DNA of 35,868 bases, taken from IMG/VR virus record IMGVR_UViG_2609460346_000008; one strand, 5' to 3'. Source of the stretch: a virus. Lineage: Duplodnaviria > Heunggongvirae > Uroviricota > Caudoviricetes. The notes beneath the pieces were generated by a model. That model was not told where the DNA came from, did no database searches, and worked only from the letters and a program-made list of their open reading frames with translations. Below, in pieces: positions 1,733 to 35,868 of this stretch. The position numbers and the translations under genes are program-made. Each line of letters starts with the position of its first letter. The stretch's first letter is position 1.

Positions 1733-1733
1733 A

Positions 1734-3052: not shown

Positions 3053-3066
3053 TGAATGCCTCCCGG

Positions 3067-3363
3067 TTACTCGTTCGTGTAAATCACGCCCAGTCGTGCA
3101 GCCAGACGTTCCAGTTTTTTCTGTTTGTGGAAGTCAATCAGCCGGTCCATCCCCTGAAGGCGCAGTTGCTCTGTCATGATTTCCACGTCTGCCAGCTCTG
3201 CCGCGAGGTCACTTTCGCTGCCCTGTCCGTTCAGATTGCGGGCAGCACTGGCCGCCAGTTCAGCGGCCTCTTCTGTCAGTTTCAGGGCCTGTGCGTCCGG
3301 CCCGAAACGCTGCAGGGCCAGACGGTAGAGGGCGGTGCGGGTGAGTTCGGTGTTTCGTGTCAT
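3067..3363 (-). CDS. MazG-like nucleotide pyrophosphohydrolase domain protein (98 aa)
   Basis: Paired acidic helices LTEEAAELAASAA and LAAELADVEIMTEQL match the EExxE...ExxD pattern of all-alpha NTP-PPase (MazG/HisE-like) proteins; RBS GAGGG 7 nt upstream. Confidence 0.5.
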   Translation of the reverse strand: MTRNTELTRTALYRLALQRFGPDAQALKLTEEAAELAASAARNLNGQGSESDLAAELADVEIMTEQLRLQGMDRLIDFHKQKKLERLAARLGVIYTNE

Positions 3364-3372
3364 GCCGCGCCC

Positions 3373-3645
3373 TCAGTGCTTCCGGCTGACGGTGATGTGC
3401 AGGCCGCCTTCTGCAGTGGTTTCCATCCGGTACGGCACCTCATGCTCTGCCGTGTGGGTGAGTGTGTTCATCAGTACCTGCAGGGCAGCCTCCTTTCCGT
3501 TGGTCGCCACAATGGCCTGTGTGGCCATGCTGATTAGCGCCGTCAGGACGTGCTTCACATCGGTGAGGTCGCGGCATTCACACTCGTTGACATAGTGTTC
3601 AACAAGAGTTCGGGTGCGCTGTCGTGCTTCCTGTGGGGTAATCAT
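3373..3645 (-). CDS. Hypothetical early protein (90 aa)
   Basis: GGGAGG RBS 8 nt upstream of the ATG at 3645; ATGA overlap with the upstream gene's stop. Confidence 0.5.
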   Translation of the reverse strand: MITPQEARQRTRTLVEHYVNECECRDLTDVKHVLTALISMATQAIVATNGKEAALQVLMNTLTHTAEHEVPYRMETTAEGGLHITVSRKH

Positions 3646-3836
3646 TGCGCGTCCTCCCTGTCAGGGCGGGAGAATTCTATGACGGGCACGTCCGCCGAAA
3701 AATGCTGGCTGCAGTACGGGCAGACCAGGGTGACGCGTACTGCAGGTACGTGGTACTTACCGGACATCACGGCGATGGCGCTGTGAAAACGCAGGGCTGT
3801 TATATCCCTCTCGCACTGAATACATTTAAATATCAT
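3642..3836 (-). CDS. Small zinc-ribbon protein (64 aa, CxxC...CxxC)
   Basis: CIQC near the N-terminus and CPYC 30 residues later; AGGAG RBS upstream of the ATG at 3836. Confidence 0.5.
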   Translation of the reverse strand: MIFKCIQCERDITALRFHSAIAVMSGKYHVPAVRVTLVCPYCSQHFSADVPVIEFSRPDREDAQ

Positions 3837-3932
3837 GATTTAATTCTCCTCTGTTTCCGGCGTGCAGAAGCCCACGGCGCTGATGCCGGAATAAAAAAGA
3901 AAAGGCTGTTTTAAATAGCTTATATGCTGTTT

Positions 3933-4463
3933 TTACTGCACATTCTGCTCAAAAGGAATTATTGAAAAATCCTCAATATCACTTTTTATGGTAATACCGG
4001 GAATATTTTTCACGGCGTCCTTTTCATTCAGGATGGCGTCTTTATTTATTTCCTCCTTTACACGGATAAAGCGCTCAAGCCCCAGACGTCTCAGTAATTC
4101 AATAACATTATCCGCCCCACGGATACTGACTGACGGCGGACGGTTTCGCCACTGCACCTCGCCGGTGGTGAGGTTAGCGAACTTCACCTTCCCGTTGCCG
4201 GTCAGTTCATCACGGTGTGCCTCACACCATGTCTGAATACCGGACTGCAGTTCGGCCATGCGTTTTTTCAGGCTCTCGGTGAGCGGGGCATAACGTGCGG
4301 TGATGTCGCCAATGGTGTCATTCATTTCTGTTTCAGCCCTGACCAGTTCACGTTGCGCGTCACCAAGCAGTCTGATTCCCTCAATGACCTCTTCGCGTGT
4401 CCCCGGCACCCAGAGTGCTGCTGCGGCTTTGATACGTTTTGCCCCTTTTGTACTTTTTGCCAT
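3933..4463 (-). CDS. gam: Gam-like host-nuclease inhibitor (Mu Gam / Ku-like DNA-end-binding protein)
   Basis: 176 aa (Mu Gam is about 174 aa); position downstream of the transposition genes as in Mu; strong AGGAGGAG RBS. Confidence 0.75.
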   Translation of the reverse strand: MAKSTKGAKRIKAAAALWVPGTREEVIEGIRLLGDAQRELVRAETEMNDTIGDITARYAPLTESLKKRMAELQSGIQTWCEAHRDELTGNGKVKFANLTTGEVQWRNRPPSVSIRGADNVIELLRRLGLERFIRVKEEINKDAILNEKDAVKNIPGITIKSDIEDFSIIPFEQNVQ

Positions 4464-4762: not shown

Positions 4763-5929
4763 TTAAACCCCTTTGACAACGTCAGCGTTGACCTGTGGAA
4801 CCCCGATTTCAGCGGCCAGATTCATGGCGGCTATTACCAGGTTACTGACGGCCAGCGGATACAGCAGGCTGACCATATTTTTACGATGACTTCCCGGATT
4901 GCTCAGGCGGGCACGTATGGCATCCACTGCGCTGGCGTCCATAATGTCCGTCAGTTGTTTACCGGCCCGTTGCAGTTTGAACGTCAGAAACTCTTCAAGG
5001 TTATTGTCCAGAGGCAGAAGTTCGACCACCTCACAGCGCTGAACGACTTCACGGACTTCCATATTGCGTTCAGACAGTTTTGTCGCCAGTTCCGGCTGGC
5101 CAATCAGCACGATGGACAGCAGTTTTTTGAAACCGGACTCCAGCTCAAAAAAGCGTTTGAGGTGTTTCAGTGTCGGAATGGGCAGACTGTGGGCCTCCTC
5201 AATCACCAGAACGTGGCTGAACCCCGCCTGGCTGCTGTCTTTCAGGACGCGATGCAACTGGCGAAAGCGGGCGTCCTGACTGCGTCTGATGCTTTCCAGT
5301 GGTGCGATGGTACTGATAATGGCTTCGGCAATCGCTGCTGCCTTCAGGGTTTTCCCTTTCACATCGTTGTCTTCCATAGCGATGATGTATGGCTCGATAA
5401 CAATTACCGGCGCATTCTCGCGGTTGATACGTTCAGTCAGGTCGCGGCGCAGCGTGGATTTACCCGCACCGGACTCACCGATGACGGCCATAAACCCACC
5501 ATGACGGGCTGTCTGGTACAACGCCTCACGCACGTAGCGAATGTCCGGGGTGGTGAACACATCATCAGAACCCTGCATGGCTTCATCGGCGAACGGGTCA
5601 CGGAAAAGACCAAACGCTTTTTTGGTTGCTGGAAATAACACCTGTTTTTTGAGTAACATATTCTCTTCCTCACTGAGGCTCGTTTTATCTGTGGTACCCG
5701 CTGTACGGGGCGTGGCTGCGCCCTGTACAGCATCAAAACTCTTCGTTGTATCAATCCCCTGACTTTCCAGCCAGGACGCAAGACGCCGGCGCACTTCTCC
5801 GGGGCTGGTGCGGGGCCACGCGTTATGATTCACAATCTGGGCCAGCGTGGCCTCAGAAACATCGACAGCTCTCGCCACCACCGCCTGTGGGATACGGGCC
5901 TCTTTCAGTTGCTGCTTCAGTACCAGCAT
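4763..5929 (-). CDS. Transposition ATPase (AAA+; functional analogue of MuB, ExeA/TniB-like)
   Basis: Walker A GESGAGKST and Walker B VLVIEEAH; N-terminal HTH-like region; preferred start is the ATG at 5929 with GAGGAGG RBS 5 nt upstream (track ORF extends to 5968); immediately downstream of the DDE transposase. Confidence 0.8.
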   Translation of the reverse strand: MLVLKQQLKEARIPQAVVARAVDVSEATLAQIVNHNAWPRTSPGEVRRRLASWLESQGIDTTKSFDAVQGAATPRTAGTTDKTSLSEEENMLLKKQVLFPATKKAFGLFRDPFADEAMQGSDDVFTTPDIRYVREALYQTARHGGFMAVIGESGAGKSTLRRDLTERINRENAPVIVIEPYIIAMEDNDVKGKTLKAAAIAEAIISTIAPLESIRRSQDARFRQLHRVLKDSSQAGFSHVLVIEEAHSLPIPTLKHLKRFFELESGFKKLLSIVLIGQPELATKLSERNMEVREVVQRCEVVELLPLDNNLEEFLTFKLQRAGKQLTDIMDASAVDAIRARLSNPGSHRKNMVSLLYPLAVSNLVIAAMNLAAEIGVPQVNADVVKGV

Positions 5930-5939
5930 GTTTTCCTCC

Positions 5940-7709
5940 TCAGTTGCCGTTAACAATGCTGATAACACTGCTGCGTGCCGGCGTGGTCAGCGTGGCCATG
6001 ACTTCATCCAGTGCAGCTTCCGGTACGCCGTCCGGGTACTGTGCCGTTAACTGGCGGTAATGTTCCGGCGTCCAGGTAAGGCCGTCGGCGCTGAACTTAT
6101 CGCGCAGGGCTTTCGCGGCCTCCACATGAGTCATGGGACGCTGTTCAGTGCGCGGTCCGCGTACGTCAGAGGCCTGGCCTCGCTTCGGCAGGTAGGCCGG
6201 AAGTGTGGTGTCGTCGATATGTTTATACGGGTCAAGCCGCCCGCCGAACGGCAGCGCCTTCGCCTTGCGTGCGGCAGCTGCATCTGCGGCGTTGTCTGTA
6301 CCGGTGACCAGCGCTTCGGTTTCTTTTGCCGCCATCTGCGCCGGGGTTTCCGGCAGGGCTTTGTAACTTTCGCCAAATACCGCCGCGCCTTCAGCAAAGC
6401 CAAACTCGTTCTTTCTGACCTCTTCGACCAGGAAGAACGTCTCGTGGCCGTCCTCACCGGTCAGAACCACCTGTGCCACATCGCTGCGCCACGGGTTACG
6501 GGTAATCATCAGTTTTTCACCAACCAGTACGCCCGGTACCGTTGATACGTCAAATTCAGTGCCCCGGAACGAGACACGAAGTTTTGGCGTGACTTTGCGG
6601 AGTTCTGGTGCCGCCACAGCCAGTTCACGACATACCTCAACGGAAGGCGCTTTTTTCAGCTGCTCAGCAGTAATCTTCAGCCAGATATCCGTGCGGGTTT
6701 TACCGTGGCGGCTGTGAACAGCCGTGGCGTTAAAGTGGCTGCGCCATTTCGCGGCCAGCGCGTTGAGTTCTTCCAGACTGTGAACCGGCCGGAACTTCAG
6801 ACCCGGCTCCAGCTTGCGTTCGATAATGTCCCGCGCCTTTTCCACCTGTCCGGTGGCGCGGGCGTTATGCGGCTTGTGCGCTATCAGGTCGATGCCCAGT
6901 GAGCGGCACATGTTTTTCGTCATACCCGCGGTGTTTGCCGAGCCGGGGTCGAGATAGAGTATTTTCGGCACACCGTGCAGCACGTCTGCGCCGCCACGCT
7001 CCTGCATGGCGTTGATAAGCACAGAACACAGGTTCTCACCTGATTCCGCGCCCGTCACATACTCAACGTAAATCCAGCCGCTGGCATGGTCGGTAATCTC
7101 GTAACTCCACACGCGGTCACTGGCGATACGGGCAAGGTTAGCGGGCTTGTTCTTGTAGAACTTCGCGCTGTCCATCACCTGCAGCCCTTTATGTCCATTG
7201 CTCAGGTAGTAAAGCGTGCAGAGTGAGGCGTCAATCTGCCAGACATGATTGGGATGCAGACTGGCCACTTCGGTATGCGGCGCAGGGGCATCCAGTTGTT
7301 CCGGGTGCAGGCCATAGTTACGCAGGGCTCGGCTGATGGCATCTTCGGACAACGGGAAAAACTCACCGGTGGTTTCATCTGTTCTGCCTGCGGATATAAA
7401 GCCGTTAGCCCGCAGGGTTTCCACTGCATCCGCGATGGAATAGAGACGCTTACCGTTCTTGCGGGTGGCCTCACGCAGTGTGGCAGATATCAGCGCGGCT
7501 TCGTCGCGGGTCAGGGCGCTGCGCCCGGCATCGGCGCGTTTTTTGCGTTTATCAGTCACAGATACCTCCTTCAGCCTGCGCAGCAGAGTGGCGCGGGACA
7601 TGCCAAGTTCAGCACAGGCAGCGTCGTATATTGCACCGCGTTTACCATGCCCCGCGTCACGTGCCGCGCGGGCTGTTTCAACCAGTTTTTCAGTCAGTGC
7701 CGGGGTCAT
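5940..7709 (-). CDS. DDE transposase (integrase-core/rve fold, Mu/Tn552/TnsB-like) with N-terminal HTH
   Basis: 589 aa; catalytic triad spacing read from the translation: D in HVWQIDAS, D in YLDPGS, E in ATGQVE 36 residues after the second D (D,D-35-E). Confidence 0.85.
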   Translation of the reverse strand: MTPALTEKLVETARAARDAGHGKRGAIYDAACAELGMSRATLLRRLKEVSVTDKRKKRADAGRSALTRDEAALISATLREATRKNGKRLYSIADAVETLRANGFISAGRTDETTGEFFPLSEDAISRALRNYGLHPEQLDAPAPHTEVASLHPNHVWQIDASLCTLYYLSNGHKGLQVMDSAKFYKNKPANLARIASDRVWSYEITDHASGWIYVEYVTGAESGENLCSVLINAMQERGGADVLHGVPKILYLDPGSANTAGMTKNMCRSLGIDLIAHKPHNARATGQVEKARDIIERKLEPGLKFRPVHSLEELNALAAKWRSHFNATAVHSRHGKTRTDIWLKITAEQLKKAPSVEVCRELAVAAPELRKVTPKLRVSFRGTEFDVSTVPGVLVGEKLMITRNPWRSDVAQVVLTGEDGHETFFLVEEVRKNEFGFAEGAAVFGESYKALPETPAQMAAKETEALVTGTDNAADAAAARKAKALPFGGRLDPYKHIDDTTLPAYLPKRGQASDVRGPRTEQRPMTHVEAAKALRDKFSADGLTWTPEHYRQLTAQYPDGVPEAALDEVMATLTTPARSSVISIVNGN

Positions 7710-15406: not shown

Positions 15407-16926
15407 CGGAGCTGCCGCCGCACATTCCTGACACCGCGAGTTATAAGGCCCCTCCCGTTCTGTTGCCCTACCAGCAGCGCTGGGTGGCAGATGCCTCTCC
15501 GCTTAAGGTGATAGAAAAGAGCCGTCGTACCGGTATTACATGGGCTGAGGCATCCGATAACGTACTGACCGCCGCCTCTTCTGCGCCAGCAGGCGGGATG
15601 AATGTGTATTACATCGCTTATAACCAGGACATGACCGTCGAATACATTCAGGCGTGTGCGATGTGGGCACGGGCATTCAACTATGCGGCCAGTGAAATTG
15701 AAGAAGGATTCTGGGAAGAGGACGACGACGACAAACACATCAGGACTTACACCATCAAATTTCCTGACTCCGGCTTTCGTATTGTTGCGCTCTCCAGCCG
15801 CCCGTCTAACCTGCGTGGCCGTCAGGGTATTATTGTTATCGACGAAGCGGCGTTCCATGAGCAACTGGACGAACTGCTGAAAGCGGCGCTGGCGATGCTT
15901 ATCTGGGGGGGAAAGGTACGCGTTATCTCCACCCATGACGGTGACGACAATCCGTTCAATACGCTTATCGGGGATATCCGTGCCGGACGTCAGGGAGGCA
16001 GCGTACATCGCATTACTTTCCGGGAAGCCGTATCTGAGGGGCTGTTCCGGCGCGTCTGTCTGCGCACCGGGAAGGAATGGTCGGAGGCATCCGAGCAGGC
16101 CTGGATGGCGTCGGTGTACAAATTCTACGGTGCCGGTGCATCCGAAGAGCTTGACTGTATTCCGGCCAACGGTGGCGGTGCCTGGCTGTCCCGAGCCCTG
16201 ATAGAGTCCCGCATGTCCGCTGATACGCCGGTATTGCGTCTGACCTGCAAGGAAGGTTATGAACTGCTGTCTGATGAGGTTCGCTTCCGCGAGACGCAGG
16301 ACTGGCTTGATGAGCATCTGAAACCATTACTGGAGGCGCTCCCCGCTGGTGCCCGCTCTTTTCTGGGGCGTGACTTTGGCCGTAGCGGGGATTTGTCGGT
16401 GGACTACCCGTTGTTGCAGGAGAAGAACCTGATACGACGCGTGCCATTCGTACTGGAGTTGCGTAACGTGCCGTTCAGGCAGCAGGAGCAAATCACCTGG
16501 TATCTGATGGATGGCCTGCCCGGTCTGCTGGGTGCAGCGTTTGATGCCCGTGGTAATGGTGCCTATCTGGCTGAATACGCCATGCAGCGCTACGGCTCCG
16601 GCCGGGTTCAGCAGGTGATGCCAACCGAAGGCTGGTACCGGGAGCATATGCCTCCGGTCAAAGCTGCACTGGAAGACGGTAACCTGGTGGACTTACCAAA
16701 GGATGAAGACACACTGGATGACCTGCGGGCCGTTCAGGTGGTGAACGGTGTCCCCCGCGTGCCGGAGCAACGCTCAAAAGCAAAGGCTGATGGTGGTAAA
16801 CGTCACGGGGATTCAGCCATCGCACTGGCGCTGGCGTATTTCGCCAGCCGTGAAATTAACAAAGGGCCGGTGAAGGCAAGCTCACGCCGTCGTCGTCAGG
16901 CGGCCCGCATGCTGGAGGGGTACTGA
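15403..16926 (+). CDS. Terminase large subunit (Mu gp28-like)
   Basis: 507 aa; position between the gp27-like and portal genes; ATGA coupling to the upstream gene. Confidence 0.8.
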   Translation: MTELPPHIPDTASYKAPPVLLPYQQRWVADASPLKVIEKSRRTGITWAEASDNVLTAASSAPAGGMNVYYIAYNQDMTVEYIQACAMWARAFNYAASEIEEGFWEEDDDDKHIRTYTIKFPDSGFRIVALSSRPSNLRGRQGIIVIDEAAFHEQLDELLKAALAMLIWGGKVRVISTHDGDDNPFNTLIGDIRAGRQGGSVHRITFREAVSEGLFRRVCLRTGKEWSEASEQAWMASVYKFYGAGASEELDCIPANGGGAWLSRALIESRMSADTPVLRLTCKEGYELLSDEVRFRETQDWLDEHLKPLLEALPAGARSFLGRDFGRSGDLSVDYPLLQEKNLIRRVPFVLELRNVPFRQQEQITWYLMDGLPGLLGAAFDARGNGAYLAEYAMQRYGSGRVQQVMPTEGWYREHMPPVKAALEDGNLVDLPKDEDTLDDLRAVQVVNGVPRVPEQRSKAKADGGKRHGDSAIALALAYFASREINKGPVKASSRRRRQAARMLEGY

Positions 16927-18422
16927 TGGCTAAAGGTATCTGGGTTTCACCCGATGAATTTGTTGCTTTTTCTGAGCCTCAGAAATCACTGACCGCGCAG
17001 ATTGCCTCCCGCAGCCGCGCGATCGACTTTTACGGACTGGGCATGTATCTGCCCAATCCTGATCCCATTCTCAAGGCTCAGGGACGGGATATCCGTATCT
17101 ACCGCGAACTGCGCACCGACCCGCTGGTCGGGGGCTGTATCCGCAGACGTAAAGCAGCGCTCAAATCACTGGAGCGTGGACTGGAGCGCGGTCACGCTTC
17201 TGCCCGGGTCTTCCGTTTCATCCGCGACATGCTCGACGATCTGGATCTGTCCCGCATCATCGGTGAGATGAGTGATGCCGTGCTCTACGGGTATCAGCCC
17301 TGTGAAATCATGTGGGGCCGTTCGGTCAGGGCGTGGGCAGTGACGGATATTGTCGGCAAACCGCCTGAGTGGTTTCAGTTTGATACGGACAACTGCCTGC
17401 GCTTCCGGGCGCGTGATGCGGGTGTGGAGGGTGAGCTGCTGTCACCGTCAAAATTCGTGGTGCCGGCACAGGATGCCTCGTATGACAATCCTTACGGTTT
17501 CCCGGACCTGTCCATGTGCTTCTGGCCGGTCGCCTTCAAGAAAGGCGGGATGAAATTCTGGCTCCGCTTTGCCGAAAAGTTTGGCTCCCCGTGGGTGATC
17601 GGTAAGCACCCGAGGGGTGCAAATGATGCAGAGATTGAAAAACTGCTGGACTCCATGGAGCAGATGGTGGAGGACGCGGTGGCCGCCATCCCCGATGACA
17701 GCAGCATCGAACTCAAAGCCGCGGATGGTAAGGCGGACAGCAGCGAGGTATTCCGCGAGCTGATCACACTGTCACGCAGTGAGATCTCCATTGCATTACT
17801 TGGTCAGAATCAGACCACGGAAGCGAACAGTAACAAGGCCTCTGCACAGGCCGGGCTGGAGGTAACGGCTGATATCCGCGATGCGGATGCGGACATCATT
17901 CAGGCAGCAGTGAATCAGGTTATCAGAACGGTGGTCACCCTGAACTTCGGCGATGTGCCGTGTCCGGTCTGGGCCATGTGGGAACAGGAGACCATTGATG
18001 ACACCCGCGCCACCCGCGACGAAAAACTCACCCGGGCGGGTCTGCGTCTGACCCCGCAATACTTTAAGCGTGAGTACCAGCTGCAGGACGGCGATATTGA
18101 CGAGACACCACCGTCGGAACGCCAGAATAACATGCTGCCGCTGTCATTTGCCGAGGCGATTGATGCCGATATTCAGGCTCAGCAGCAGCTTGACGACGCG
18201 CTGGACATTCTGATGAACGGAGGTGTGTTAAATGGCACGCTGGAACCCGTCCTGGCACCTCTGTTTAAGCGGGTCGAAAACGGGGTTAACCCGTCTGAGC
18301 TGCTGGGCGAACTGGCGGAGCTCTACCCTCAGATGAACACGGACGATCTGCAGGAACGGCTGGCCCGCATTCTCTTTGTGGCAAATATCCGGGGGCGTCT
18401 GCATGAGCGTGACAACGGCTGA
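16926..18422 (+). CDS. Portal protein (Mu gp29-like)
   Basis: 498 aa; directly after the large terminase with ATGA overlap; followed by the F-like head morphogenesis gene. Confidence 0.8.
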   Translation: MAKGIWVSPDEFVAFSEPQKSLTAQIASRSRAIDFYGLGMYLPNPDPILKAQGRDIRIYRELRTDPLVGGCIRRRKAALKSLERGLERGHASARVFRFIRDMLDDLDLSRIIGEMSDAVLYGYQPCEIMWGRSVRAWAVTDIVGKPPEWFQFDTDNCLRFRARDAGVEGELLSPSKFVVPAQDASYDNPYGFPDLSMCFWPVAFKKGGMKFWLRFAEKFGSPWVIGKHPRGANDAEIEKLLDSMEQMVEDAVAAIPDDSSIELKAADGKADSSEVFRELITLSRSEISIALLGQNQTTEANSNKASAQAGLEVTADIRDADADIIQAAVNQVIRTVVTLNFGDVPCPVWAMWEQETIDDTRATRDEKLTRAGLRLTPQYFKREYQLQDGDIDETPPSERQNNMLPLSFAEAIDADIQAQQQLDDALDILMNGGVLNGTLEPVLAPLFKRVENGVNPSELLGELAELYPQMNTDDLQERLARILFVANIRGRLHERDNG

Positions 18423-23243: not shown

Positions 23244-23494
23244 TGAAAGAATACCGCTATTCCGGCCCGGCCAGCGGCGTCACGCTGTCGGACGGAACCG
23301 AAATCCTGCTCTGGCCGGGGAAGACGGTTTCCCTGCCGGAGGAGCATGACTACGTGAAGGTACTGGTGGCGCTGAAACATCTGACGCCGGTACCTGAAGA
23401 GACTAAACCCGCCGGCACACCGGCTGTGCAGTCACCAAAGCGCAGAAGCAGCAGTGACAGCGAAGTGAAAACGGAGGACATCCATGGCAGCTAA
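23240..23494 (+). CDS. Small protein (84 aa; DUF2635-like) preceding the tail sheath
   Basis: Overlaps neighbouring genes at both ends; position conserved in Mu-like tail modules. Confidence 0.5.
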   Translation: MMKEYRYSGPASGVTLSDGTEILLWPGKTVSLPEEHDYVKVLVALKHLTPVPEETKPAGTPAVQSPKRRSSSDSEVKTEDIHGS

Positions 23495-24911
23495 CTATCT
23501 GCATGGTCCCGAAACCATTGAGGTGGAAAACGGAGCCCGCCCGGTTAAAACGGTGAAATCTGCCGTTATTGGCCTGATTGGTACCGCCCCGATGGGGGAT
23601 GTCAATACGCTGGTACAGTGCCTGTCTGAGAAAGACGCAGCGGCATTTGGCAGCCAGTTCACCGGCTTTACCATTCCGCAGGCGCTGGATGCGATTTATG
23701 ACCATGGTGCAGGTACCGTTCTGGTCATTAACGTCCTCGACCCGGCGAAACATAAAACGGCGATCGAGGATGAGGTGGTTACCTTTGACAAATCGACAGG
23801 GCAGGCCAGACTGGCGCATCCGGTTGTCGCTAATGTGGTGGTGAAAAACAGTGAAGGCAGCACCTCCCACACGGCGAACACGGACTACCGTGTTGATGCG
23901 CAGGCGGGTGTGCTCACGAACCTGGGCAAGGCTATTGAGGCCGGTGGCAGCGTGAAGGTGAGCTATGAGTACGCGGACCCGTCGAAGGTGACTGCGGCGG
24001 ACATCATCGGCGGGGTGAACAGCGCCGGAAACCGAACCGGCATGAAGCTGCTTAACGACAGCTTCAACCTGTACGGCTATTTCGCCAAAATTCTGATTGC
24101 GCCGGTGTTCTGCACCCAGAAGAGTGTCGCAGTTGAGCTTATCGCCATGGCAGAGAAGCTGGGCGCGGTAACCTACATTGATGCGCCTGTCGGTACCACC
24201 TTTGCACAGGCTCTGGCAGGTCGTGGCCCGGAAGGCACCATCAACTTCAATACCAGCTCCGACCGCGTCCGTCTGTGCTATCCGCATGTGAAGGTATATG
24301 ACCCGGTGACAAACACAGAGCGTCTGGAGCCGCTCAGCCAGCGTGCAGCAGGTCTGCGTGCCAGAGTCGATCTGGACAAGGGCTACTGGTGGTCATCCTC
24401 CAATCAGGAGATTCTGGGGATCACCGGCGTGGAGCGCCAGCTGTCCGCGATGATTGATGACCCGCAGAGTGAGGTGAACCTGCTTAACGAACAGGGGATC
24501 ACCACGGTATTCAGCAGTTACGGCAGCGGCCTTCGTCTGTGGGGTAACCGGACGGCAGCATGGCCAACGGTCACCCATATGCGTAACTTTGAGAACGTTC
24601 GCCGCACCGGTGATGTGATCAACGAGTCCATTCGTTATTTCAGCCAGCAGTACATCGACATGCCGATTACTCAGGCGCTGATTGATGCACTGACGGAGTC
24701 GGTCAACGCCTACGGTCGCAAAATGACTGGTGATGGTGCGGTACTGGGCTTCCGTTGCTGGTTTGATCCGGCCCGCAATCCGGAGACGGAGCTGGCCGCC
24801 GGGCACCTGTTGCTGAGCTACAAATATACGCCACCACCGCCGCTGGAGCGACTGACGTTTGAGACTGAGATCACCTCGGAATACCTGTTAACCCTGAAAG
24901 GGGGCAACTGA
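23484..24911 (+). CDS. Contractile tail sheath protein (Mu L-like)
   Basis: 475 aa; followed immediately by the tube gene with ATGA overlap. Confidence 0.8.
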   Translation: MAANYLHGPETIEVENGARPVKTVKSAVIGLIGTAPMGDVNTLVQCLSEKDAAAFGSQFTGFTIPQALDAIYDHGAGTVLVINVLDPAKHKTAIEDEVVTFDKSTGQARLAHPVVANVVVKNSEGSTSHTANTDYRVDAQAGVLTNLGKAIEAGGSVKVSYEYADPSKVTAADIIGGVNSAGNRTGMKLLNDSFNLYGYFAKILIAPVFCTQKSVAVELIAMAEKLGAVTYIDAPVGTTFAQALAGRGPEGTINFNTSSDRVRLCYPHVKVYDPVTNTERLEPLSQRAAGLRARVDLDKGYWWSSSNQEILGITGVERQLSAMIDDPQSEVNLLNEQGITTVFSSYGSGLRLWGNRTAAWPTVTHMRNFENVRRTGDVINESIRYFSQQYIDMPITQALIDALTESVNAYGRKMTGDGAVLGFRCWFDPARNPETELAAGHLLLSYKYTPPPPLERLTFETEITSEYLLTLKGGN

Positions 24912-25432
24912 TGTCAAAGATTGAGATAAACCGCATCACGAATGCCAACATCTATCTGGATGGTACTAACCTGCTGGGACGGGCTGAGGAAGTTAAACTC
25001 CCCGATGTCTCCATGATTATGCAGGAACACAAGGCGCTGGGGATGGTGGGTAAGGTGGAACTCCCGGCTGGTTTTGACAAACTGGAAGGCGAAATCAAAT
25101 GGAACAGCTTTTACCGCGATGCGATGCTGTCTGCCGCGAACCCGTACAGGTCGCTGGCACTGCAGTGTCGTTCCAGCGTCCAGCGCTACAGCTCGCAGGG
25201 GCTGATTGACGAAATCCCGCTGGTCACCTTCCTGACGATTATGTTCAAGAAGAACCCGCTGGGGACGTTCAAACAGCACGAGAACGCCGAGTTCTCCAGT
25301 AGCTTCACCTGCACGTATATCAGACAGGTACTGGATGGTGAAGAGCTGCTGCAACTGGACTATCTGGCCAACATCTTCCGGGTCGGCGGTGTTGATCAAC
25401 TGACTGACTACCGTATCAATATCGGGGGCTGA
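24911..25432 (+). CDS. Tail tube protein (Mu M-like)
   Basis: 173 aa; directly downstream of the sheath gene. Confidence 0.75.
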   Translation: MSKIEINRITNANIYLDGTNLLGRAEEVKLPDVSMIMQEHKALGMVGKVELPAGFDKLEGEIKWNSFYRDAMLSAANPYRSLALQCRSSVQRYSSQGLIDEIPLVTFLTIMFKKNPLGTFKQHENAEFSSSFTCTYIRQVLDGEELLQLDYLANIFRVGGVDQLTDYRINIGG

Positions 25433-25813: not shown

Positions 25814-26149
25814 ATGTCACAGACCCCATCCGATACTTTTAAATTGTCTTATCCCTTCACCACTGCTGCAGGCACCAGAATTGAGCTGGTTGAACTGAAA
25901 CGCCTGACGGTAAAAGACCTGAAGCAGGTGCGCAAAATCAGCAAAAACCCGGCAGACTGGGACGAACCGCTGATTGCCCGCAGTACTGGTCTTCTCCCGG
26001 AGGATCTCGACAATATGGATCTGGCTGATTACCTGCAGTTACAGAAACGATTTCAGCTCATCACGGGGATGGGTGAGAGCAACCAGGGCGCTGACGCAGG
26101 CGCAGGGGCTGCTGGCGAGATGGTTCCGGTTTCAGCCGGGGGAGATTGA
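25814..26149 (+). CDS. Tail assembly chaperone (P2 E / Mu gp41-like)
   Basis: 111 aa; located between tube and tape measure; acidic Gly/Ala-rich C-terminus; overlapped by an alternative-frame ORF. Confidence 0.6.
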   Translation: MSQTPSDTFKLSYPFTTAAGTRIELVELKRLTVKDLKQVRKISKNPADWDEPLIARSTGLLPEDLDNMDLADYLQLQKRFQLITGMGESNQGADAGAGAAGEMVPVSAGGD

Positions 26150-26306: not shown

Positions 26307-29300
26307 ATGTCGGGACAGTTTTCAGTCGGCGTTGTTATCGGCGGGATGATTGGCAGCACATTCCGTTCTGCAATGAGCGGTACCCGCCGTGCGCTTGATT
26401 CCCTGAGCGATACCTCACGCCGCCTGCAGGAACGTCAGAACGCTTTAACCCGTGCAACAGAACGTTATGGTCAACTGGGTTCTTCCCGGATGCAGCATCT
26501 CAACAGCGAGCTGCTGCGGGTAAGCCGCACCATGGAGCAAATTGAGCGCCAGCAGCGCCGTCTGTCAGCGGCATCCGCTACCAGTGATGCGCTGAAAGCT
26601 AACCGCATGGCGCTGTATGGTCAGGGGATTGAAGCGTATGGCATGGCACAGACTGTTTATCATACGGTTTCCCCTGCCGTTCAGCAGTCCATGTCTTTTC
26701 AGGACAAAATGATTGATATGTCGATCACCGCAAAATATGACAATAAAACGCGGGATGCACTTGCCGGACAGATAAAAGGCTGGGCGCTTAAATACAATCA
26801 GTATCAGGATGAGCTGCAGGAGGCGGTGGGTTCACTCATCAGCGACAATATTGATAATGTGTCAGATATCGGTTTTCTGATGCCGGATATTGCCCGCGCG
26901 GCAACGGCAACACGCACGTCTGCTCAGGACTGGGCAAAAGTGGCCGCAGTCTGGCAAAACTCCCTGAAAGGTGCGGCCAGAGATTTTGGTGCCGTTCAGA
27001 ATATTATGGCTTATGCCGGTGACCAGGGGTCATTTGAAATCCCGGATCAGGTCAAGTGGATGCAGTCCCTGGCCCCAATGATGGCGGGTATTGCCAGTGG
27101 AAAAGAGGCTGTTGCTGAAATCGGGGCCAGTCTCCAGATAGCAAAAATCGGTGCAGGTTCCACCGACGAAGCAGCCAATAATTTTAAAAACTTTCTTACC
27201 AAAATTTTTGCCCGCGATACTCAGAAACAGTTTGCTGATCTGGGTATTGATTTGCAGGGATCTATTGCGAGTTATAAGGCTGCGGGGATCTCTCCGATTG
27301 AAGGGATGTTGAGTGTTATAGAACGTTACCTCAATGCCAAAAGCCCCGAAGCGCTGGCCGGCTTCAAATCCGCCATGAAAATAAAGAATGATACGGCAAG
27401 AGATGAGGCACTTCAGGCTCTGGCGAAAAACTTTGGTCTGGGTGATATGTTCGCGGATATGCAGGTCATGGCATTTATCCGCCCGATGCTGGCCAACATG
27501 GACAGATATCGAGAGATCCGTGCCGGTGCTCTCAGGGCTGCGGATAACGATTTGCTTGCCAGTGCTTACGATCAGCGACTGAAATCTCCCCTTGAAGCCA
27601 CTAAAACACTTATGGTCAGCAGTCGCGATCTGGCAATTACGCTGGGCGATCAATTAGCTCCATCTTTTATTTCTTTGACTCAGGAACTGCTTCCACTCAT
27701 TCAGGGGGCAAAACACTGGGTAGCGACTCACCCGCAATTTGTCAGTGGGGCTTTTAAGCTCATCAGTGCGCTCCTTGCGATTAAGATAGCGACTGTTGGT
27801 CTCAAACTGGGGCTGAATCTCCTTATTTCCCCCTTTGTAAGTGTCTGGAAAAATGCTGTTTTACTCCGGACCAACTGGCATCGACTGACTACCGCACTCG
27901 GAGAAGGTGGCAAATTACGCTGGCTTGTCACTGGATTCAGCCGACTGACCAGCGGAGGACTGAAACTCAGCAAAGTTCTGGCGGGCAGCCTCGTTCGCGG
28001 TTTTATGAGCGCTGCACGTGCCGTTCTCTGGATTGGGCGAGCGCTGATGATGAATCCCATCGGTCTCGTTATCACCGCTGTCGCGGCAGCAGCTTACCTT
28101 ATCTACCGCAACTGGGGGGCTGTCAGTGGTTGGTTTAAACAGCGCTGGGCTGACATTCAGGAAGCCTTTAACGGCGGCATTGTGGGAACTGGTAAGTTGC
28201 TGATTAACTGGTCGCCGGCAGGCCTGCTCTATAAAGCCTTTGCGGCTGCGCTGAAATATTTCGGCGTTGCTCTGCCGGCAAAGTTCACCGACTTCGGTGG
28301 CCATCTTATCGACGGTCTGATTAACGGTATCAAAAGCAAATGGGGGTCGCTCAAATCCAGTGTAACCGGAATGGGTGACAGCATCAGTAGCTGGTTTAAA
28401 CAGCGCTGGGCTGACATTCAGGAAGCCTTTAACGGCGGCATTGTGGGAACTGGTAAGTTGCTGATTAACTGGTCGCCGGCAGGCCTGCTCTATAAAGCCT
28501 TTGCGGCTGCGCTGAAATATTTCGGCGTTACTCTGCCGGCAAAGTTCACCGACTTCGGTGGCCATCTTATCGACGGTCTGATTAACGGTATCAAAAACAA
28601 ATGGGGGTCGCTCAAATCCAGTGTAACCGGAATGGGTGACAGCATCAGTAGCTGGTTTAAACAGTGCTGGGCTGACATTCAGGAAGCCTTTAACGGCGGT
28701 ATCGCGGGAACTGGTAAGCTGCTGATTAACTGGTCGCCGGCAGGTCTGCTCTATAAAGCCTTTGCAGCTGCGCTGAAATATCTTGGTGTTGATCTGCCGG
28801 CAAAGTTTACCGACTTCGGTGGCCATCTTGTCGATGGTCTGATTAACGGTATCAAAAACAAATGGGAGTCGCTCAAATCCAGTGTAACCGGAATGGGCGA
28901 CAGCATCAGTGGCTGGTTCAGCGAAAAGCTGGGCATTCATTCGCCGAGCCGCGTGTTTATGGGCTTTGGTGACAATATCGCGCAGGGGGCCGCCATTGGC
29001 CTGCAGCGGACCACTCCGCTTGCAGCTCTGGCCGGGCAGCGAATGGCCAGTGAACTGCTCCCCAGAATGCCCGTGAGCATTCAGGGGCCAGAAATACGGG
29101 ATAACACTTCAGGTGTTCGCTTCAGTATGCCGTTGCCCGATATCAATGGGTTTATGTCGTCTGCTAAAAATGCGATCGGAGCCGTAATCAATAGTTTGTC
29201 TTCCATGCCCGCTATCCCGCTCTCCACCCGGGCATCGATTTTACCAGGGCAACGTCTGGCAAATGAGATGACACCGGATGTTCCCCGTATCCCCTCGCCT

Positions 29301-29519
29301 GAAATCATGGCTGCCGGATATTCAGGCCGTGGTGCAGCTGCAACCGGCGGTGGAACGTCTGGTGGTATCCAGGTCAGCTTTAATCCTCAGTTTTTCCTCA
29401 ATGGCAGGGAAACCACAGCGCCTGCAGGACTGACTGGTGCCCTGAATATGAGTCTGCATGAGCTGGAAAAAATGCTGGAGCGTCTGCTGGCTCAGAAACA
29501 ACGTAAGGAGTACCGCTGA
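26307..29519 (+). CDS. Tail tape measure protein (1070 aa) with internal tandem repeats
   Basis: Longest ORF in the tail module; GGAGG RBS 9 nt upstream; Ala/Gly-rich helical regions plus hydrophobic segments; three 87-aa tandem repeats. Confidence 0.9.
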   Translation: MSGQFSVGVVIGGMIGSTFRSAMSGTRRALDSLSDTSRRLQERQNALTRATERYGQLGSSRMQHLNSELLRVSRTMEQIERQQRRLSAASATSDALKANRMALYGQGIEAYGMAQTVYHTVSPAVQQSMSFQDKMIDMSITAKYDNKTRDALAGQIKGWALKYNQYQDELQEAVGSLISDNIDNVSDIGFLMPDIARAATATRTSAQDWAKVAAVWQNSLKGAARDFGAVQNIMAYAGDQGSFEIPDQVKWMQSLAPMMAGIASGKEAVAEIGASLQIAKIGAGSTDEAANNFKNFLTKIFARDTQKQFADLGIDLQGSIASYKAAGISPIEGMLSVIERYLNAKSPEALAGFKSAMKIKNDTARDEALQALAKNFGLGDMFADMQVMAFIRPMLANMDRYREIRAGALRAADNDLLASAYDQRLKSPLEATKTLMVSSRDLAITLGDQLAPSFISLTQELLPLIQGAKHWVATHPQFVSGAFKLISALLAIKIATVGLKLGLNLLISPFVSVWKNAVLLRTNWHRLTTALGEGGKLRWLVTGFSRLTSGGLKLSKVLAGSLVRGFMSAARAVLWIGRALMMNPIGLVITAVAAAAYLIYRNWGAVSGWFKQRWADIQEAFNGGIVGTGKLLINWSPAGLLYKAFAAALKYFGVALPAKFTDFGGHLIDGLINGIKSKWGSLKSSVTGMGDSISSWFKQRWADIQEAFNGGIVGTGKLLINWSPAGLLYKAFAAALKYFGVTLPAKFTDFGGHLIDGLINGIKNKWGSLKSSVTGMGDSISSWFKQCWADIQEAFNGGIAGTGKLLINWSPAGLLYKAFAAALKYLGVDLPAKFTDFGGHLVDGLINGIKNKWESLKSSVTGMGDSISGWFSEKLGIHSPSRVFMGFGDNIAQGAAIGLQRTTPLAALAGQRMASELLPRMPVSIQGPEIRDNTSGVRFSMPLPDINGFMSSAKNAIGAVINSLSSMPAIPLSTRASILPGQRLANEMTPDVPRIPSPEIMAAGYSGRGAAATGGGTSGGIQVSFNPQFFLNGRETTAPAGLTGALNMSLHELEKMLERLLAQKQRKEYR
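28131..28913 (+). repeat. Three in-frame tandem repeats of 261 bp (87 aa) inside the tape measure gene
   Basis: Unit starts at 28131, 28392 and 28653 (tggtttaaacagcgctgggctgacattcaggaagcc...); copies 1 and 2 nearly identical, copy 3 slightly diverged. Confidence 0.9.
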
Positions 29520-30403
29520 TGTTTGCCGTACTGGGTGATATTGAGTTTGAGCTGATTACCTACTGGGACGGCTTCGAGGCCACGTTCGGCGTCGATTATG
29601 CGGAGCATGCCCGCATCGGGGGTAAGCCTGGCCTGCAGTTCGTCGGCGACAGGCTGGACGAAATCCAGATAACTCTGGTTTTCCATCAGCATTATTGTGT
29701 ACCCGATGTGGAGCTGGCGAGACTGCGAACAGCCATGAAAGCCCATCAGGCACTGGCGCTGGTCTTCGGCAACGGTGACTATCGCGGCTGGTTCGTGATT
29801 ACCGATGTGACCGCAACCAGCGAGCAGACTGACAGTACCGGCAACGTGCTGGCTGTCAGTGCCACCGTGTCTCTCCGGGAATACACCGGTGACCCGAAAA
29901 ATCCTCTGCAACCACCGGCAATACGCACGAAGCTCCCGGGTGTCGGGGCGGTCTCCGGTGCCATACCTTCACCTTCAGGGGTGGCGCAGTTCATCCGCAA
30001 CGGCGTCAACTATGCGAAACAGGCGCAGTCTGTACTCCAGACCACTATCAGCGCCGTTCGGGTGACACAGAAAATGAAGGATAACCCCGTTGTCGCACTG
30101 ACCCGTGTGCCGGGGCTGATGAGCGGACTGGGTAATATCTCCGGGGCTCTGGGGAAAAGTGTTCCGGCGTTTAACGCACTCTCTGAATCCATGCCCGATG
30201 CCATCAGTCTGGCCAGAACAGCCAGCGAAGCAGCCACGTATGTACAGCAGGCACAGTCTGCGCTGAGTGGTGTGGACAAAAGAAATATTGCAGGTGCTCT
30301 GGATACCGTTTCCGGGCAGCTTAACGCCGCCGGCACAGCATTCAACCGCATGTCTCCGGGATTAAGTGCAATGGCCGCCAGAATACTGACGAGGAGTGTG
30401 TGA
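29519..30403 (+). CDS. Tail protein with P2 gpU-like N-terminal domain and Ala/Ser-rich C-terminal extension
   Basis: ATGA overlap with the tape measure stop; AAGGAG RBS; N-terminal segment ...GNGDYRGWFVITDVTATSE... resembles the gpU tail-completion fold. Confidence 0.55.
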   Translation: MFAVLGDIEFELITYWDGFEATFGVDYAEHARIGGKPGLQFVGDRLDEIQITLVFHQHYCVPDVELARLRTAMKAHQALALVFGNGDYRGWFVITDVTATSEQTDSTGNVLAVSATVSLREYTGDPKNPLQPPAIRTKLPGVGAVSGAIPSPSGVAQFIRNGVNYAKQAQSVLQTTISAVRVTQKMKDNPVVALTRVPGLMSGLGNISGALGKSVPAFNALSESMPDAISLARTASEAATYVQQAQSALSGVDKRNIAGALDTVSGQLNAAGTAFNRMSPGLSAMAARILTRSV

Positions 30404-30615
30404 TGTTTCTTGAACATGTTACCCGTGACGGAGAGCGCTGGGATTCGCTGGCATGGCAGTACTACGGTGACCCGCTGGGCTATCCCCGGATTATTGCCGC
30501 CAATCCGCACGTGGCCATCACGCCGGTGCTGCCCTCCGGGCTGTTGTTACTGATCCCGGTGATTGAGGCTGAAGAAGCCCGTACAGAAGAGGATATTGCC
30601 CCATGGCTGAGATAA
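30403..30615 (+). CDS. Tail protein X (P2 gpX-like, LysM-like)
   Basis: 70 aa; GAGGAG 6 nt upstream of the ATG at 30403 (track starts at the GTG at 30400). Confidence 0.6.
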   Translation: MFLEHVTRDGERWDSLAWQYYGDPLGYPRIIAANPHVAITPVLPSGLLLLIPVIEAEEARTEEDIAPWLR

Positions 30616-31757
30616 ACAGCACTGCGCAAGTCACATCAGCGTTAACCAGCGTCAGCGATGTGCTGACACCGGTGTTCACTCTGTGGTATCTGCAGAAAAA
30701 CATCACCTCTGATATCGCGCCTTATGTCACCCGTGTGACCTGGAGCGATAACATCAAAAATGAGTCCGATACCATTGAGGTGGAGCTGGACGACACCGAT
30801 GGCCGCTGGCTGGATAAGTGGTATCCGGGCAAGGGTGACACGCTGACGCTGAAAATGGGCTATCAGGGCGAGAAGCTGCTGTCCTGCGGTACGTTCTCTA
30901 TAGACGAGATCGAAGTGAGTTCGCCCGCTTCCGTTGTTTCTATCCGTGGGGTGGCCACCTCGGTTAACAGTGCCCTGCGGACTAAAACCAGTCGTGGTTT
31001 TGAGAACACCACGCTGGCAGCTGTTGCGGGGCGGATTGCCAGAAAGCACCGACTGAAACTGGTGGGCAGCATTGAGTCCATCAGAATCGACCGGGTGACC
31101 CAGTATGCTGAAACCGACGTGGGTTTTCTGCGCCGGCTGGCCAGCGAGTATGGTTATGCAGTGAAAGTGGTCAGTGACCAGCTGATTTTTTCTCATCTGG
31201 CCACACTGCGCAGTCAGGAGCCGGTCAGGCAGTTAAAACCGCAGGATGTGGCCCGCTTTTCCCTGCGTGACACCATCAACCGGGTCTATAAATCTGCAAA
31301 GGTAAAACACCAGAAAAGCAGCAGTAAAAAACTGATCGTCTACGAAGCTGATGGTGGTACCCGTGAAAGCGACAAAAAGCTCAAAGGTGGTAAGGTTACC
31401 AGCGCTGACTCACTTAAAGTTAACAGCCGCGTCAGCGACCCGGACAGTGCCCGGATTAAAGCGGATTCAGCACTGGCCAGACATAACGAATACCAGCAGA
31501 ACGGCTCCCTGACGCTGACGGGAACACCTCAACTGACAGCAGGCAACAAAATTGAACTGGTGAGTTTTGGGCAGTTATCCGGGCCATGGCTCATAACCAC
31601 TGCCCGCCATGCGTTTGACCGTAACAGCGGCTACACCACAGAGCTGGAAGTGGCACGGGGGCCAGTCACAAGAGGGAAAAAACAAAAAACTCAGAAACTC
31701 ACGGTTTATCACCCGGATGGCAGTACATCGACGGTGATTAAGGAGAAGAAAAAATGA
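30603..31757 (+). CDS. Tail protein D (P2 gpD-like; baseplate hub/late control D family)
   Basis: 384 aa; overlaps the gpX-like gene's 3' end; position upstream of the V/W/J/I baseplate genes. Confidence 0.7.
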   Translation: MAEINSTAQVTSALTSVSDVLTPVFTLWYLQKNITSDIAPYVTRVTWSDNIKNESDTIEVELDDTDGRWLDKWYPGKGDTLTLKMGYQGEKLLSCGTFSIDEIEVSSPASVVSIRGVATSVNSALRTKTSRGFENTTLAAVAGRIARKHRLKLVGSIESIRIDRVTQYAETDVGFLRRLASEYGYAVKVVSDQLIFSHLATLRSQEPVRQLKPQDVARFSLRDTINRVYKSAKVKHQKSSSKKLIVYEADGGTRESDKKLKGGKVTSADSLKVNSRVSDPDSARIKADSALARHNEYQQNGSLTLTGTPQLTAGNKIELVSFGQLSGPWLITTARHAFDRNSGYTTELEVARGPVTRGKKQKTQKLTVYHPDGSTSTVIKEKKK

Positions 31758-34419: not shown

Positions 34420-35868
34420 ATGGGAAACCTGAATGAAACAGAAAAGTGGGAAGAAAATATCTATCAACTGGAGACATCAGATCCGGTTCTGGGTGGTGCT
34501 GACGGGATATCAAATCGAGCCCCCCGGCAACTGGCAAACAGGACGAAATGGCTGAAGAAAAAAACGGAGGAAGCCGCACAGTCACTGGCTGAACACGTAC
34601 GTTCCCGTAACCACCCGGACGCGACACTGACAGCTAAGGGGTTCACCCAACTGAGCAGTGCCACCAACAGCACCTCTGAAACGCTGGCCGCCACACCAAA
34701 AGCGGTCAAGGCTGCATACGACCTGGCAGCCGGCAAGGCGCCTGCCAGCCACACTCACCCGTGGAGTCAGATAACGGGAGTGCCTGCGGCTTCACTGACG
34801 GCAAAAGGCACCGTACAACTGAGCAGCGCCACGGACAGTCAATCAGAAACTGAGGCTGCCACGCCGAAGGCTGTGAAAATCGCGTATGATCTGGCCCGGG
34901 GAAAATACACAGCCCAGGATGCAACAACGACCCGTAAAGGGATCGTACAACTGAGCAGTGCCATCAACAACACGTCTGAAACGCTGGCCGCCACACCGAA
35001 AGCGGTCAAGGCTGCATACGACCTGGCAGCCGGCAAGGCGCCTGCCAGCCACACTCACCCGTGGAGTCAGATAACGGGAGTGCCTGCGGCTTCACTGACG
35101 GCAAAAGGCACCGTACAACTGAGCAGCGCCACGGACAGTCAATCAGAAACTGAGGCTGCCACGCCGAAGGCGGTCAAGGCTGCATACGACCTTGCAGCCG
35201 GCAAGGCGCCCGTCAGCCACACTCACCCGTGGAGTCAGATAACGGGAGTGCCTGCTGCCTCGCTGACGGCAAAAGGCACCGTACAATTGAGCAGTGCCAT
35301 CAACAGCACGTCTGAAATACTGGCCGCCACACCGAAAGCGGTCAAGGCTGCATACGACCTTGCAGCCGGCAAGGCGCCCGTCAGCCACACTCACCCGTGG
35401 AGTCAGATAACGGGAGTGCCTGCTGCCTCGCTGACGGCAAAAGGCACCGTACAATTGAGCAGTGCCATCAACAGCACGTCTGAAGTGCTGGCCGCTACAC
35501 CGAAAGCTGTCAAGGCTGCATACGATCTGGCAAACGGAAAACAACCGGCAGATGCCACGCTCACTGCTCTGGCAGGACTTTCCACTGCAGCAGATCGGTT
35601 GCCTTATTTTACCGGAGCAGACCGAGCAGCGCTGGCAACCCTTACAGCTATTGGTCGCGCTATTATCGCTAAGGGCAGTATAAAAGATGTCCTCAATTAC
35701 CTTGGTTTGGGGGAAGGCTCTGCATTGCCTGTTGGTGTACCGGTTCCGTGGCCCACCGCCACACCGCCAGAAGGCTGGTTAAAGTGCGACGGGCGCGCCT
35801 TTACAAAAGAACAATATCCTGTTCTGGCCAGAGCCTACCCGACCCTCCGTCTTCCCGATTTACGCGGT
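34420..35868 (+). CDS. Tail fibre protein, 3'-truncated by the window end
   Basis: Open frame from the ATG at 34420 (GGGAG 9 nt upstream) to the last base of the window with no stop, which is why it is absent from the track; about 56-aa tail-fibre repeats (TAKGTVQLSSA...ATPKAVKAAYDLA...SHTHPWSQITGVPAASL); C-terminal visible part PVPWP...GWLKCDGRAF...YP.L...YP resembles conserved fibre segments. Confidence 0.8.
   Translation, partial: MGNLNETEKWEENIYQLETSDPVLGGADGISNRAPRQLANRTKWLKKKTEEAAQSLAEHVRSRNHPDATLTAKGFTQLSSATNSTSETLAATPKAVKAAYDLAAGKAPASHTHPWSQITGVPAASLTAKGTVQLSSATDSQSETEAATPKAVKIAYDLARGKYTAQDATTTRKGIVQLSSAINNTSETLAATPKAVKAAYDLAAGKAPASHTHPWSQITGVPAASLTAKGTVQLSSATDSQSETEAATPKAVKAAYDLAAGKAPVSHTHPWSQITGVPAASLTAKGTVQLSSAINSTSEILAATPKAVKAAYDLAAGKAPVSHTHPWSQITGVPAASLTAKGTVQLSSAINSTSEVLAATPKAVKAAYDLANGKQPADATLTALAGLSTAADRLPYFTGADRAALATLTAIGRAIIAKGSIKDVLNYLGLGEGSALPVGVPVPWPTATPPEGWLKCDGRAFTKEQYPVLARAYPTLRLPDLRG
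34620..35530 (+). repeat. Tandem repeat array (about 168-bp units) inside the tail fibre gene, including a near-identical 190-bp duplication 300 bp apart
   Basis: 34681-34871 and 34981-35171 are nearly identical (one mismatch noted); 168-bp periodicity at 35221 versus 35389; accounts for the shadow ORFs on the minus strand here. Confidence 0.85.

Follow-up and report, generated by a model that had tools for sequence, protein, structure and literature searches.

In long-tailed phages a protein ruler fixes the length of the tail, a rule for which nearly all of the evidence has been obtained with engineered mutants of a handful of model phages. Whether such a ruler also gains and loses whole pieces in nature is the question raised by a 35,868-nucleotide stretch of DNA from a caudoviral genome (IMG/VR record IMGVR_UViG_2609460346_000008; 'the window' below means this whole stretch), in which the gene for the tape measure protein (26307-29519, plus strand, 1070 aa) contains three near-identical 261-bp repeats in tandem. 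Here we report that one-, two- and three-unit alleles of this gene are real, and that the repeat is a naturally variable length element of a familiar kind. As an overall explanation we consider it likely that a duplication seeded by microhomology was followed by unequal exchange, yielding one to three units, each of which would lengthen the tail.

The gene is identified by matches of its product to PF10145 (aa 159-340, E 2e-20, 73.9 bits against a cut-off of 33.2), to TIGR01760 tape_meas_TP901 (aa 119-493, E 7e-16, 58.2 bits against a cut-off of 28.8) and to the tape measure families PHROG 28 (E 7.5e-136) and PHROG 794, by the name 'phage tail tape measure protein' carried by its homologues, and by its position, after the tube gene and a frameshifted chaperone gene and before genes of the gpU and gpD types, as is usual for the family. 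Within it, Tandem Repeats Finder detects a single strong array, 28123-28918 (period 261, 3.0 copies, 95% matches, indels 0, score 1445), limits that include the 13-nt start of a fourth unit. A repeat search places the in-register copies at 28123-28383, 28384-28644 (98% identical to the first) and 28645-28905 (93%), and found no alignment to the unit in the 261 nt flanking the array on either side. Since 261 is 3 x 87, the frame is kept, and the whole array lies inside the open reading frame (ORF) 26307-29519 on the plus strand. The preliminary description of this DNA had reported three in-frame 261-bp repeats in the tape measure gene at 28131-28913, which is the same array shifted in phase by 8 nt and entirely contained in 28123-28918; the two repeat programs and the ORF bear it out.

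Phased by codons, the plus-strand array consists of three 87-aa units at 28125-28385 (unit 1, SGWFKQRW...GMGDSI), 28386-28646 (unit 2) and 28647-28907 (unit 3). Units 1 and 2 differ at only 4 nt (3 aa), while unit 3 differs from unit 1 at 19 nt (8 aa) and from unit 2 at 17 nt (6 aa). Upstream of the array the protein has two hydrophobic segments (Kyte-Doolittle 19-aa windows >= 1.6), at aa 478-508 (27738-27830, plus strand) and, just 5' of the repeats, at aa 579-600 (28041-28106, plus strand); just 3' lies a conserved GIHSPSR motif (28932-28952, plus strand), which every allele has behind its last unit. The unit belongs to the ordinary conserved make-up of this tape measure family; it is situated between the second hydrophobic segment and GIHSPSR and contains a strongly conserved NWSPxGLxY motif. 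Among the units of 11 alleles, the variable sites read in the tape measure frame comprise 18 synonymous and 12 non-synonymous changes, and the other five frames give 6-14 synonymous changes, so that the tape measure frame alone yields mostly synonymous changes.

Two further readings of the repeat were examined and set aside. An antisense ORF that spans the array (27915-28940, minus strand, 341 aa) is most likely spurious, a by-product of a stop-free repeat, because the substitutions among units favour the tape measure frame. A composition of each unit from two homologous halves of ~43 aa was ruled out by hhalign comparison of the half profiles (probability 3%). Autocorrelation of the one-unit version of the protein against 500 shuffles detected no aromatic periodicity at 11 or 18 aa (z = -0.39 at lag 11 and 0.62 at lag 18).

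Conclusions on copy number rest on complete genomes, since draft assemblies may collapse repeats. The region is present in 634 of 5426 complete Escherichia coli genomes (~12%), and allele frequencies were taken from a systematic sample of 60 rows down the ranking of these 634, in which 59 hits were informative. Two units, recognised by a query span of 1340 bp (1274 bp in one variant), are found in 42 of the 59 (~70%), three units (1601 bp) in 12 (~20%), and a single unit, with a span of 1079 bp or belonging to a divergent 821-aa type, in 5. At the top of the ranking, where 71 complete E. coli genomes match at >=99%, the best 60 all carry three copies in a single ungapped 1601-bp alignment, and 23 of these 60 share one three-copy allele. 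Protein lengths tell the same story: the best 120 protein clusters include products of 896, 983 and 1070 aa, at the fixed spacing corresponding to 1, 2 and 3 units, and alleles of four or more units occurred neither in these clusters nor in the sampled complete genomes. Among individual loci (numbered L001 onwards), the coding sequence (CDS) measures 2691 nt (896 aa) in L002, 2952 nt (983 aa) in L003 and L005, 3213 nt (1070 aa) in L004 and 2466 nt (821 aa) in L006 and L007. Related phages thus carry a variable number of in-frame tandem units, 1, 2 or 3 x 87 aa, and the copy-number variants that the preliminary description had supposed do exist, so that copy number in homologous prophages is not invariant.

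The closest comparison is between L008, a two-unit locus from a blood isolate from Melbourne, and L011, a three-unit locus from the USA, whose flanks are the same over 5.8 kb save for 1 nt and which occupy different host genes, sfaA and gudD. The near-identical flanks and different insertion genes show that the change occurred in a circulating pool of phages that were able to transpose and had almost the same tail module. Mixed copy numbers also occur within five groups defined by tape measure backbones that are identical or one residue apart over 809 residues, part of which could be accounted for by collapse in draft assemblies. The flank distances of L009 (ABU 83972) were ignored, as they are inflated by compensating indels.

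Copy number of the 87-aa unit is not the only length polymorphism of this gene. A 72-aa C-terminal segment (aa 915-986; 29049-29264, plus strand) is a second, older one; it is missing from the 821-aa alleles (L006, L007) and is flanked by two similar motifs of ~20 aa, GQRMASELLPRMPVSIQGPEI and GQRLANEMTPDVPRIPSPEI. A third kind of length variant is seen in L013 (NZ_CP145671.1, tape measure CDS 1108-3993), whose 961-aa product has two units and a 66-nt in-frame deletion 5' of the array; several 961-aa protein clusters exist.

How units were gained and lost can be followed through 23 informative sites phased across the units of 11 alleles. These sites define 'first-unit' and 'later-unit' types at the 5' end of a unit and 'internal' and 'terminal' types at its 3' end. 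Two-copy alleles have the structure [first/internal][later/terminal], and the terminal type, represented in the window by unit 3, ends the array in every two- and three-copy allele examined. Unit 1 of the window is of the first-unit type in its 5' part and of the internal type in its 3' part. The middle unit of the window, as of L009 and L011, has later-unit bases, the type found at the junction, at sites 4 and 6; from site 19 onward it has switched to the first-unit type and equals unit 1, which puts the crossover in the interval from site 6 to site 19, close to the unit's 5' end. In L004 the middle unit switches type between sites 65 and 73, and in L010 it equals the first unit of L003 save at sites 4 and 19. 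These three different middle-unit mosaics imply that three copies arose at least three times, apparently by separate unequal homologous exchanges. Together with the L008/L011 pair, this pattern indicates that copy changes have been recurrent and that at least one was very recent.

The phasing of single-nucleotide polymorphisms (SNPs) fits the proposal, made from the window alone, that near-identical tandem units act as substrates for recombination, here in the form of homologous unequal exchange. It also fits a recent duplication of copies 1 and 2, as had been suggested from their high identity, the middle unit being unit 1 from unit site 19 with downstream-type bases at the junction. Two of the four differences between units 1 and 2 are, however, polymorphisms that other alleles share, so that the exchange may have taken place between two different alleles.

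Contraction appears to have occurred as well. The single unit of L002 is a hybrid, with the 5' portion of a first unit and the 3' portion of a terminal one, and it shows derived states of both source units when compared with the one-copy outgroups L006 and L007; this 896-aa allele is best read as a secondary contraction from two copies. On a wider scale, one unit is found in 16 orthologues from other genera of Enterobacterales at 39-75% identity (Intestinirhabdus, Pantoea, Mixta, Trabulsiella, Dickeya, Brenneria, Xenorhabdus and others) and in 61 of 78 IMG/VR relatives. From this distribution we take one unit as the ancestral state and the expansion as proper to the E. coli lineage.

The origin of the first duplication can be sought at the borders of the unit, which is bracketed by a repeated xGWF(K/S)(Q/E) in every family member examined, as ...AVSGWFKQRW at its start and ...DSISGWFSEKLGIHSPSR after its end. 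In DNA this is a 13-nt direct repeat 261 bp apart, with 13 of 13 nt identical in the one-copy L002; in the window it appears as TCAGTGGTTGGTT at the upstream border (28123-28135, plus strand, coding for SGWF) and as TCAGTGGCTGGTT at the downstream border (28906-28918, plus strand, coding for SGWF and then SEKLGIHSPSR). Such border microhomology would plausibly have seeded the first duplication through slipped mispairing. Once two 261-bp copies were present, homologous unequal exchange would add or remove whole units, with sister chromosomes, or related phages or prophages, as partners.

What an added unit would do can be stated in numbers. Tube and sheath would polymerise along the tape measure protein, so that each unit would add ~13 nm, or about three tube/sheath rings, and at 0.15 nm per residue the products of 896, 983 and 1070 aa predict tails of ~134, 147 and 160 nm. 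The ring rise is near 4 nm in P2- and T4-type tubes. The tube protein is identical across one-, two- and three-unit loci (accession WP_162832341.1), which leaves the tape measure protein as the only obvious length variable. Our inference that copy number translates into tail length draws on the ruler experiments done with lambda gpH, T4 gp29 and TP901-1. In TP901-1, a deletion of 347 aa shortened the tail from 118 to 65 nm, or 0.153 nm/aa, and deletions in the hydrophobic and repeat regions alike shorten it proportionally (PMC5099701); T4 gp29 extends the ruler rule to contractile tails, as cited in PMC13585406. The figure of roughly 13 nm per unit in the preliminary description, which assumed 0.15 nm per residue, agrees with the TP901-1 ratio and with routine use of 0.15 nm per residue for tape measure proteins (PMC9928086). 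For the Mu-like myovirus KS10, a tape measure protein of 811 aa and a tail of ~140 nm have been reported (PMC2628397). A literature search found no papers on tail dimensions of Escherichia coli Bcepmuvirus or of Escherichia phage PhiKM (PQ738613, L001), which is the closest deposited phage, is classed as Bcepmuvirus and is 97.8% identical over the tape measure gene.

Several other explanations have to be weighed against this one. That faulty assembly or scaffolding made three copies out of a shorter array would be in keeping with the way in which such arrays break assemblies, exemplified by a sequencing gap in the array of PhiKM and by a mis-join with N inside the array of another locus (L042); but the same three-copy span is recovered without gaps at >=99% identity in all 60 top-ranked complete genomes, and the unit-specific SNPs of the three units are reproduced across independent genomes, which makes an artefact, a reservation already raised with the preliminary description, extremely improbable. 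A different objection is that the repeat alters the length of the protein and leaves that of the tail unchanged, the segment being folded, lodged in the hub, or acting after ejection, where it would span the periplasm or form a DNA conduit and its copy number would tune envelope crossing. The array directly follows the hydrophobic segments at aa 478-508 and 579-600 and is rich in Trp, Phe and Gly, the conserved NWSPxGLxY suggests a specific function beyond spacer length, and the C-terminal repeats of TP901-1 matter for plaque formation and internalisation (PMC5099701). Against this, the TP901-1 deletions in both regions shortened tails in proportion to their size (PMC5099701), and distant relatives have duplicated the same zone with unit lengths from 42 to 235 aa, as expected of a length element; we regard this objection as unlikely to hold.

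The evidence on that zone comes from an exhaustive search with a one-unit query, which matched 558 representative clusters at E <= 0.001. Among the best 150 of these, 45 contain 2-4 matched stretches, at spacings of 42, 46-49, 72-78, 86-87, 101 and 110-115 aa; wider spacings still, 188 and 235 aa, occur in two IMG/VR relatives. The zone between the hydrophobic stretches and GIHSPSR has thus undergone independent duplication in many lineages, each time with borders of its own, and such variety fits a length element more readily than a domain with a precise fold. The array might also be a fast-switching contingency locus, with mixed tail lengths in one culture or lysate as a form of bet-hedging. 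Direct repeats of 261 bp at 93-98% identity are, as a matter of general knowledge, good substrates for RecA-dependent and replication-slippage events, and the near-identical pair L008/L011 does differ by one unit; yet one two-copy allele is shared with identical scores by many of the sampled genomes and one three-copy allele by 23 of the 60 top-ranked ones, which speaks for clonal stability, and no Chi site was found near the array, the sole Chi of the window being at 584-591. Such switching is, in our view, very unlikely.

The preferred reading, recurrent gain and loss of units that each lengthen the tail, has points of its own against it, which we gather here. The two-copy allele just mentioned occurs with identical scores in 32 sampled genomes, some labelled sequence type 131 (ST131). 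The many genomes with identical two- or three-copy alleles argue against hypermutability, and the array looks stable within large clonal sets, its changes being occasional and neither frequent nor hypervariable. Complete genome records can themselves be wrong, as the gap in PhiKM and the mis-scaffolded L042 illustrate. Two copies we infer to be ancestral in the E. coli clade from only two outgroups, and recombination between alleles makes it harder to tell in what order the events took place. Finally, an extended helical state of the repeat region is assumed, the predicted structure being uninformative: a single-sequence AlphaFold2 model of aa 564-904 is nearly all helix, but its mean predicted local distance difference test score (pLDDT) of 40.4 and predicted template modelling score (pTM) of 0.21 deprive it of weight.

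A more ambitious proposal, that copy number is selected as a dial for tail length and penetration depth, is speculative, and we think it unlikely. If it were true, an added unit would lengthen the tube and hence the contraction stroke, matching the thickness of the capsule or O-antigen layer of the hosts, and the xGWF microhomology at both borders would be kept because it permits re-expansion after contraction.

The behaviour of the array in sequence records has practical consequences. In the PhiKM record, the tape measure CDS bears the remark 'disrupted by sequencing gap' at the array. L042 (IMGVR_UViG_2740892433_000005), at 2317-4266, runs from the upstream flank through 3.4 units to an N and resumes with 8 nt of upstream flank, which four units and then the downstream flank follow; this mis-join within the array breaks the ORF and hints at an allele of at least four units, a hint that is not trustworthy. 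Elsewhere, the tape measure CDS is split into two ORFs in ABU 83972 (L009) and is a pseudogene lacking its C-terminus in Z0117EC0117 (L039). The gene defects in PhiKM, ABU 83972 and Z0117EC0117 reflect either decaying prophages or errors in the records. Short low-coverage contigs labelled 'Arthrobacter sp.' GMC3 and Y81 (L014, L034, L036) contain the tape measure gene at 96-99% identity, and an E. coli prophage gene in such contigs is almost certainly assembly contamination. Because the array breaks or misleads assembly, tape measure lengths of these prophages taken from short-read assemblies are not to be trusted.

Around the tape measure gene, all on the plus strand, lie genes for the tail sheath (23484-24911, PF04984/PF17482), the tail tube (24911-25432, PF04985) and a gpE-type tail assembly chaperone (25814-26149, PF10109, E 5.5e-21) with an overlapping -1 frame extension to 26231, followed on the 3' side by a gpU-like gene (29519-30403, PF06995), a gpD-like hub gene (30603-31757, PF05954) and, further 3', the baseplate J and I genes. 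These genes read as a P2-type contractile tail module, in which the ruler would determine how many sheath and tube subunits each tail holds. The chaperone ORF and its -1 ORF form the usual programmed-frameshift pair 5' of a tape measure gene, and a 'GpE family phage tail protein' is annotated at the corresponding place in L012 and L007.

The window lies entirely inside a prophage, and the phage is a BcepMu-like transposable one. It has, in the left half of the window, a transposase with an rve domain (5940-7709, minus strand), its AAA_22 ATPase partner (4763-5968, minus strand), a D12 methylase gene and a Mu-type portal (Portal_Mu; 16926-18422), each of the transposase, ATPase and portal being recognised by a domain match; collinear relatives that are 98-99% identical have annotated Mor and Gam. 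Collinear prophages of the same 98-99% identity interrupt sfaA, gudD and rfaH in three complete genomes, which is the behaviour of a transposable phage.

These near-identical prophages truncate sfaA in L037 (NZ_CP196262), gudD in L038 (NZ_CP029747) and rfaH in L039 (NZ_CP098187), genes for the S-fimbrial major pilin, for glucarate dehydratase and for the transcription antiterminator of the lipopolysaccharide, capsule and haemolysin operons, respectively; knock-out of rfaH could alter the host surface and virulence. In the same three loci, in the region corresponding to sequence beyond the end of the window, a small 'recombinase family protein' gene stands beside partial or alternative tail-fibre and fibre-assembly genes in opposite orientations, an arrangement reminiscent of the invertible segment that governs host range in Mu and P1 (G/C segment, Gin/Cin). 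The tail fibre gene of the window, from ~34419 to the window end, has a second in-frame tandem array at 34936-35532 (3.6 copies of 168 bp, or 56 aa, with 89% matches), whose units follow the pattern TAKGTVQLSSA..SET.AATPKAVKAAYDLA. The tail-fibre CDS differs in length among close relatives (1596 nt in L039, 1923 nt in L037 and 1932 nt in L038), which suggests that this array is probably copy-variable as well.

The value of the tape measure locus lies in a natural allelic series of one, two and three units, including a pair almost identical save for one unit, which allows the ruler rule, whole-ring rounding and the fitness effects of tail length to be studied in a contractile tail without engineering. 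Set beside known systems, it has several relatives. Lambda gpH and T4 gp29 embody the same protein-ruler principle (Katsura and Hendrix 1984; Abuladze et al. 1994; cited in PMC13585406), but the variants there are laboratory deletions and duplications, and the literature consulted describes no natural copy-number series for them. TP901-1 belongs to the same family model (TIGR01760, PF10145) and likewise has hydrophobic regions followed by a repeat region (PMC5099701); engineered deletions and duplications shift its tail length proportionally (Pedersen 2000; Mahony 2016, PMC5099701), and the authors of that work suggested that repeats make it easier for length to be gained and lost in nature (PMC5099701). 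It is, however, a siphovirus of Lactococcus with 29 degenerate, aromatic-marked repeats of 11 or 18 aa and its variation was engineered, whereas the present gene has three near-identical 87-aa units without 11-aa aromatic periodicity, and varies naturally. Natural in-frame duplication and loss of units in tape measure genes was deduced by Belcaid et al. 2011 from related prophages (PMC3271669), but there the units are of 11 aa, in many copies and from old duplications in Clostridium prophages (PMC3271669), as against 87-aa units in 1-3 copies, with 93-98% DNA identity and resolvable crossover points. With P2 gpT and BcepMu-type phages the locus shares the order sheath, tube, gpE/E' chaperone, tape measure, gpU, gpX and gpD, while orthologues in other genera have a single unit where the window has three. 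Tandem repeats are mostly absent from myovirus tape measures according to a 2026 survey (PMC13585406), so that among phages of this morphotype a long tandem repeat is the less common condition. The idea that repeats in tape measures facilitate the evolution of length is thus already published; what is distinct here is a long, near-identical 87-aa unit, in a myovirus, with a well-populated natural series whose crossovers can be resolved.

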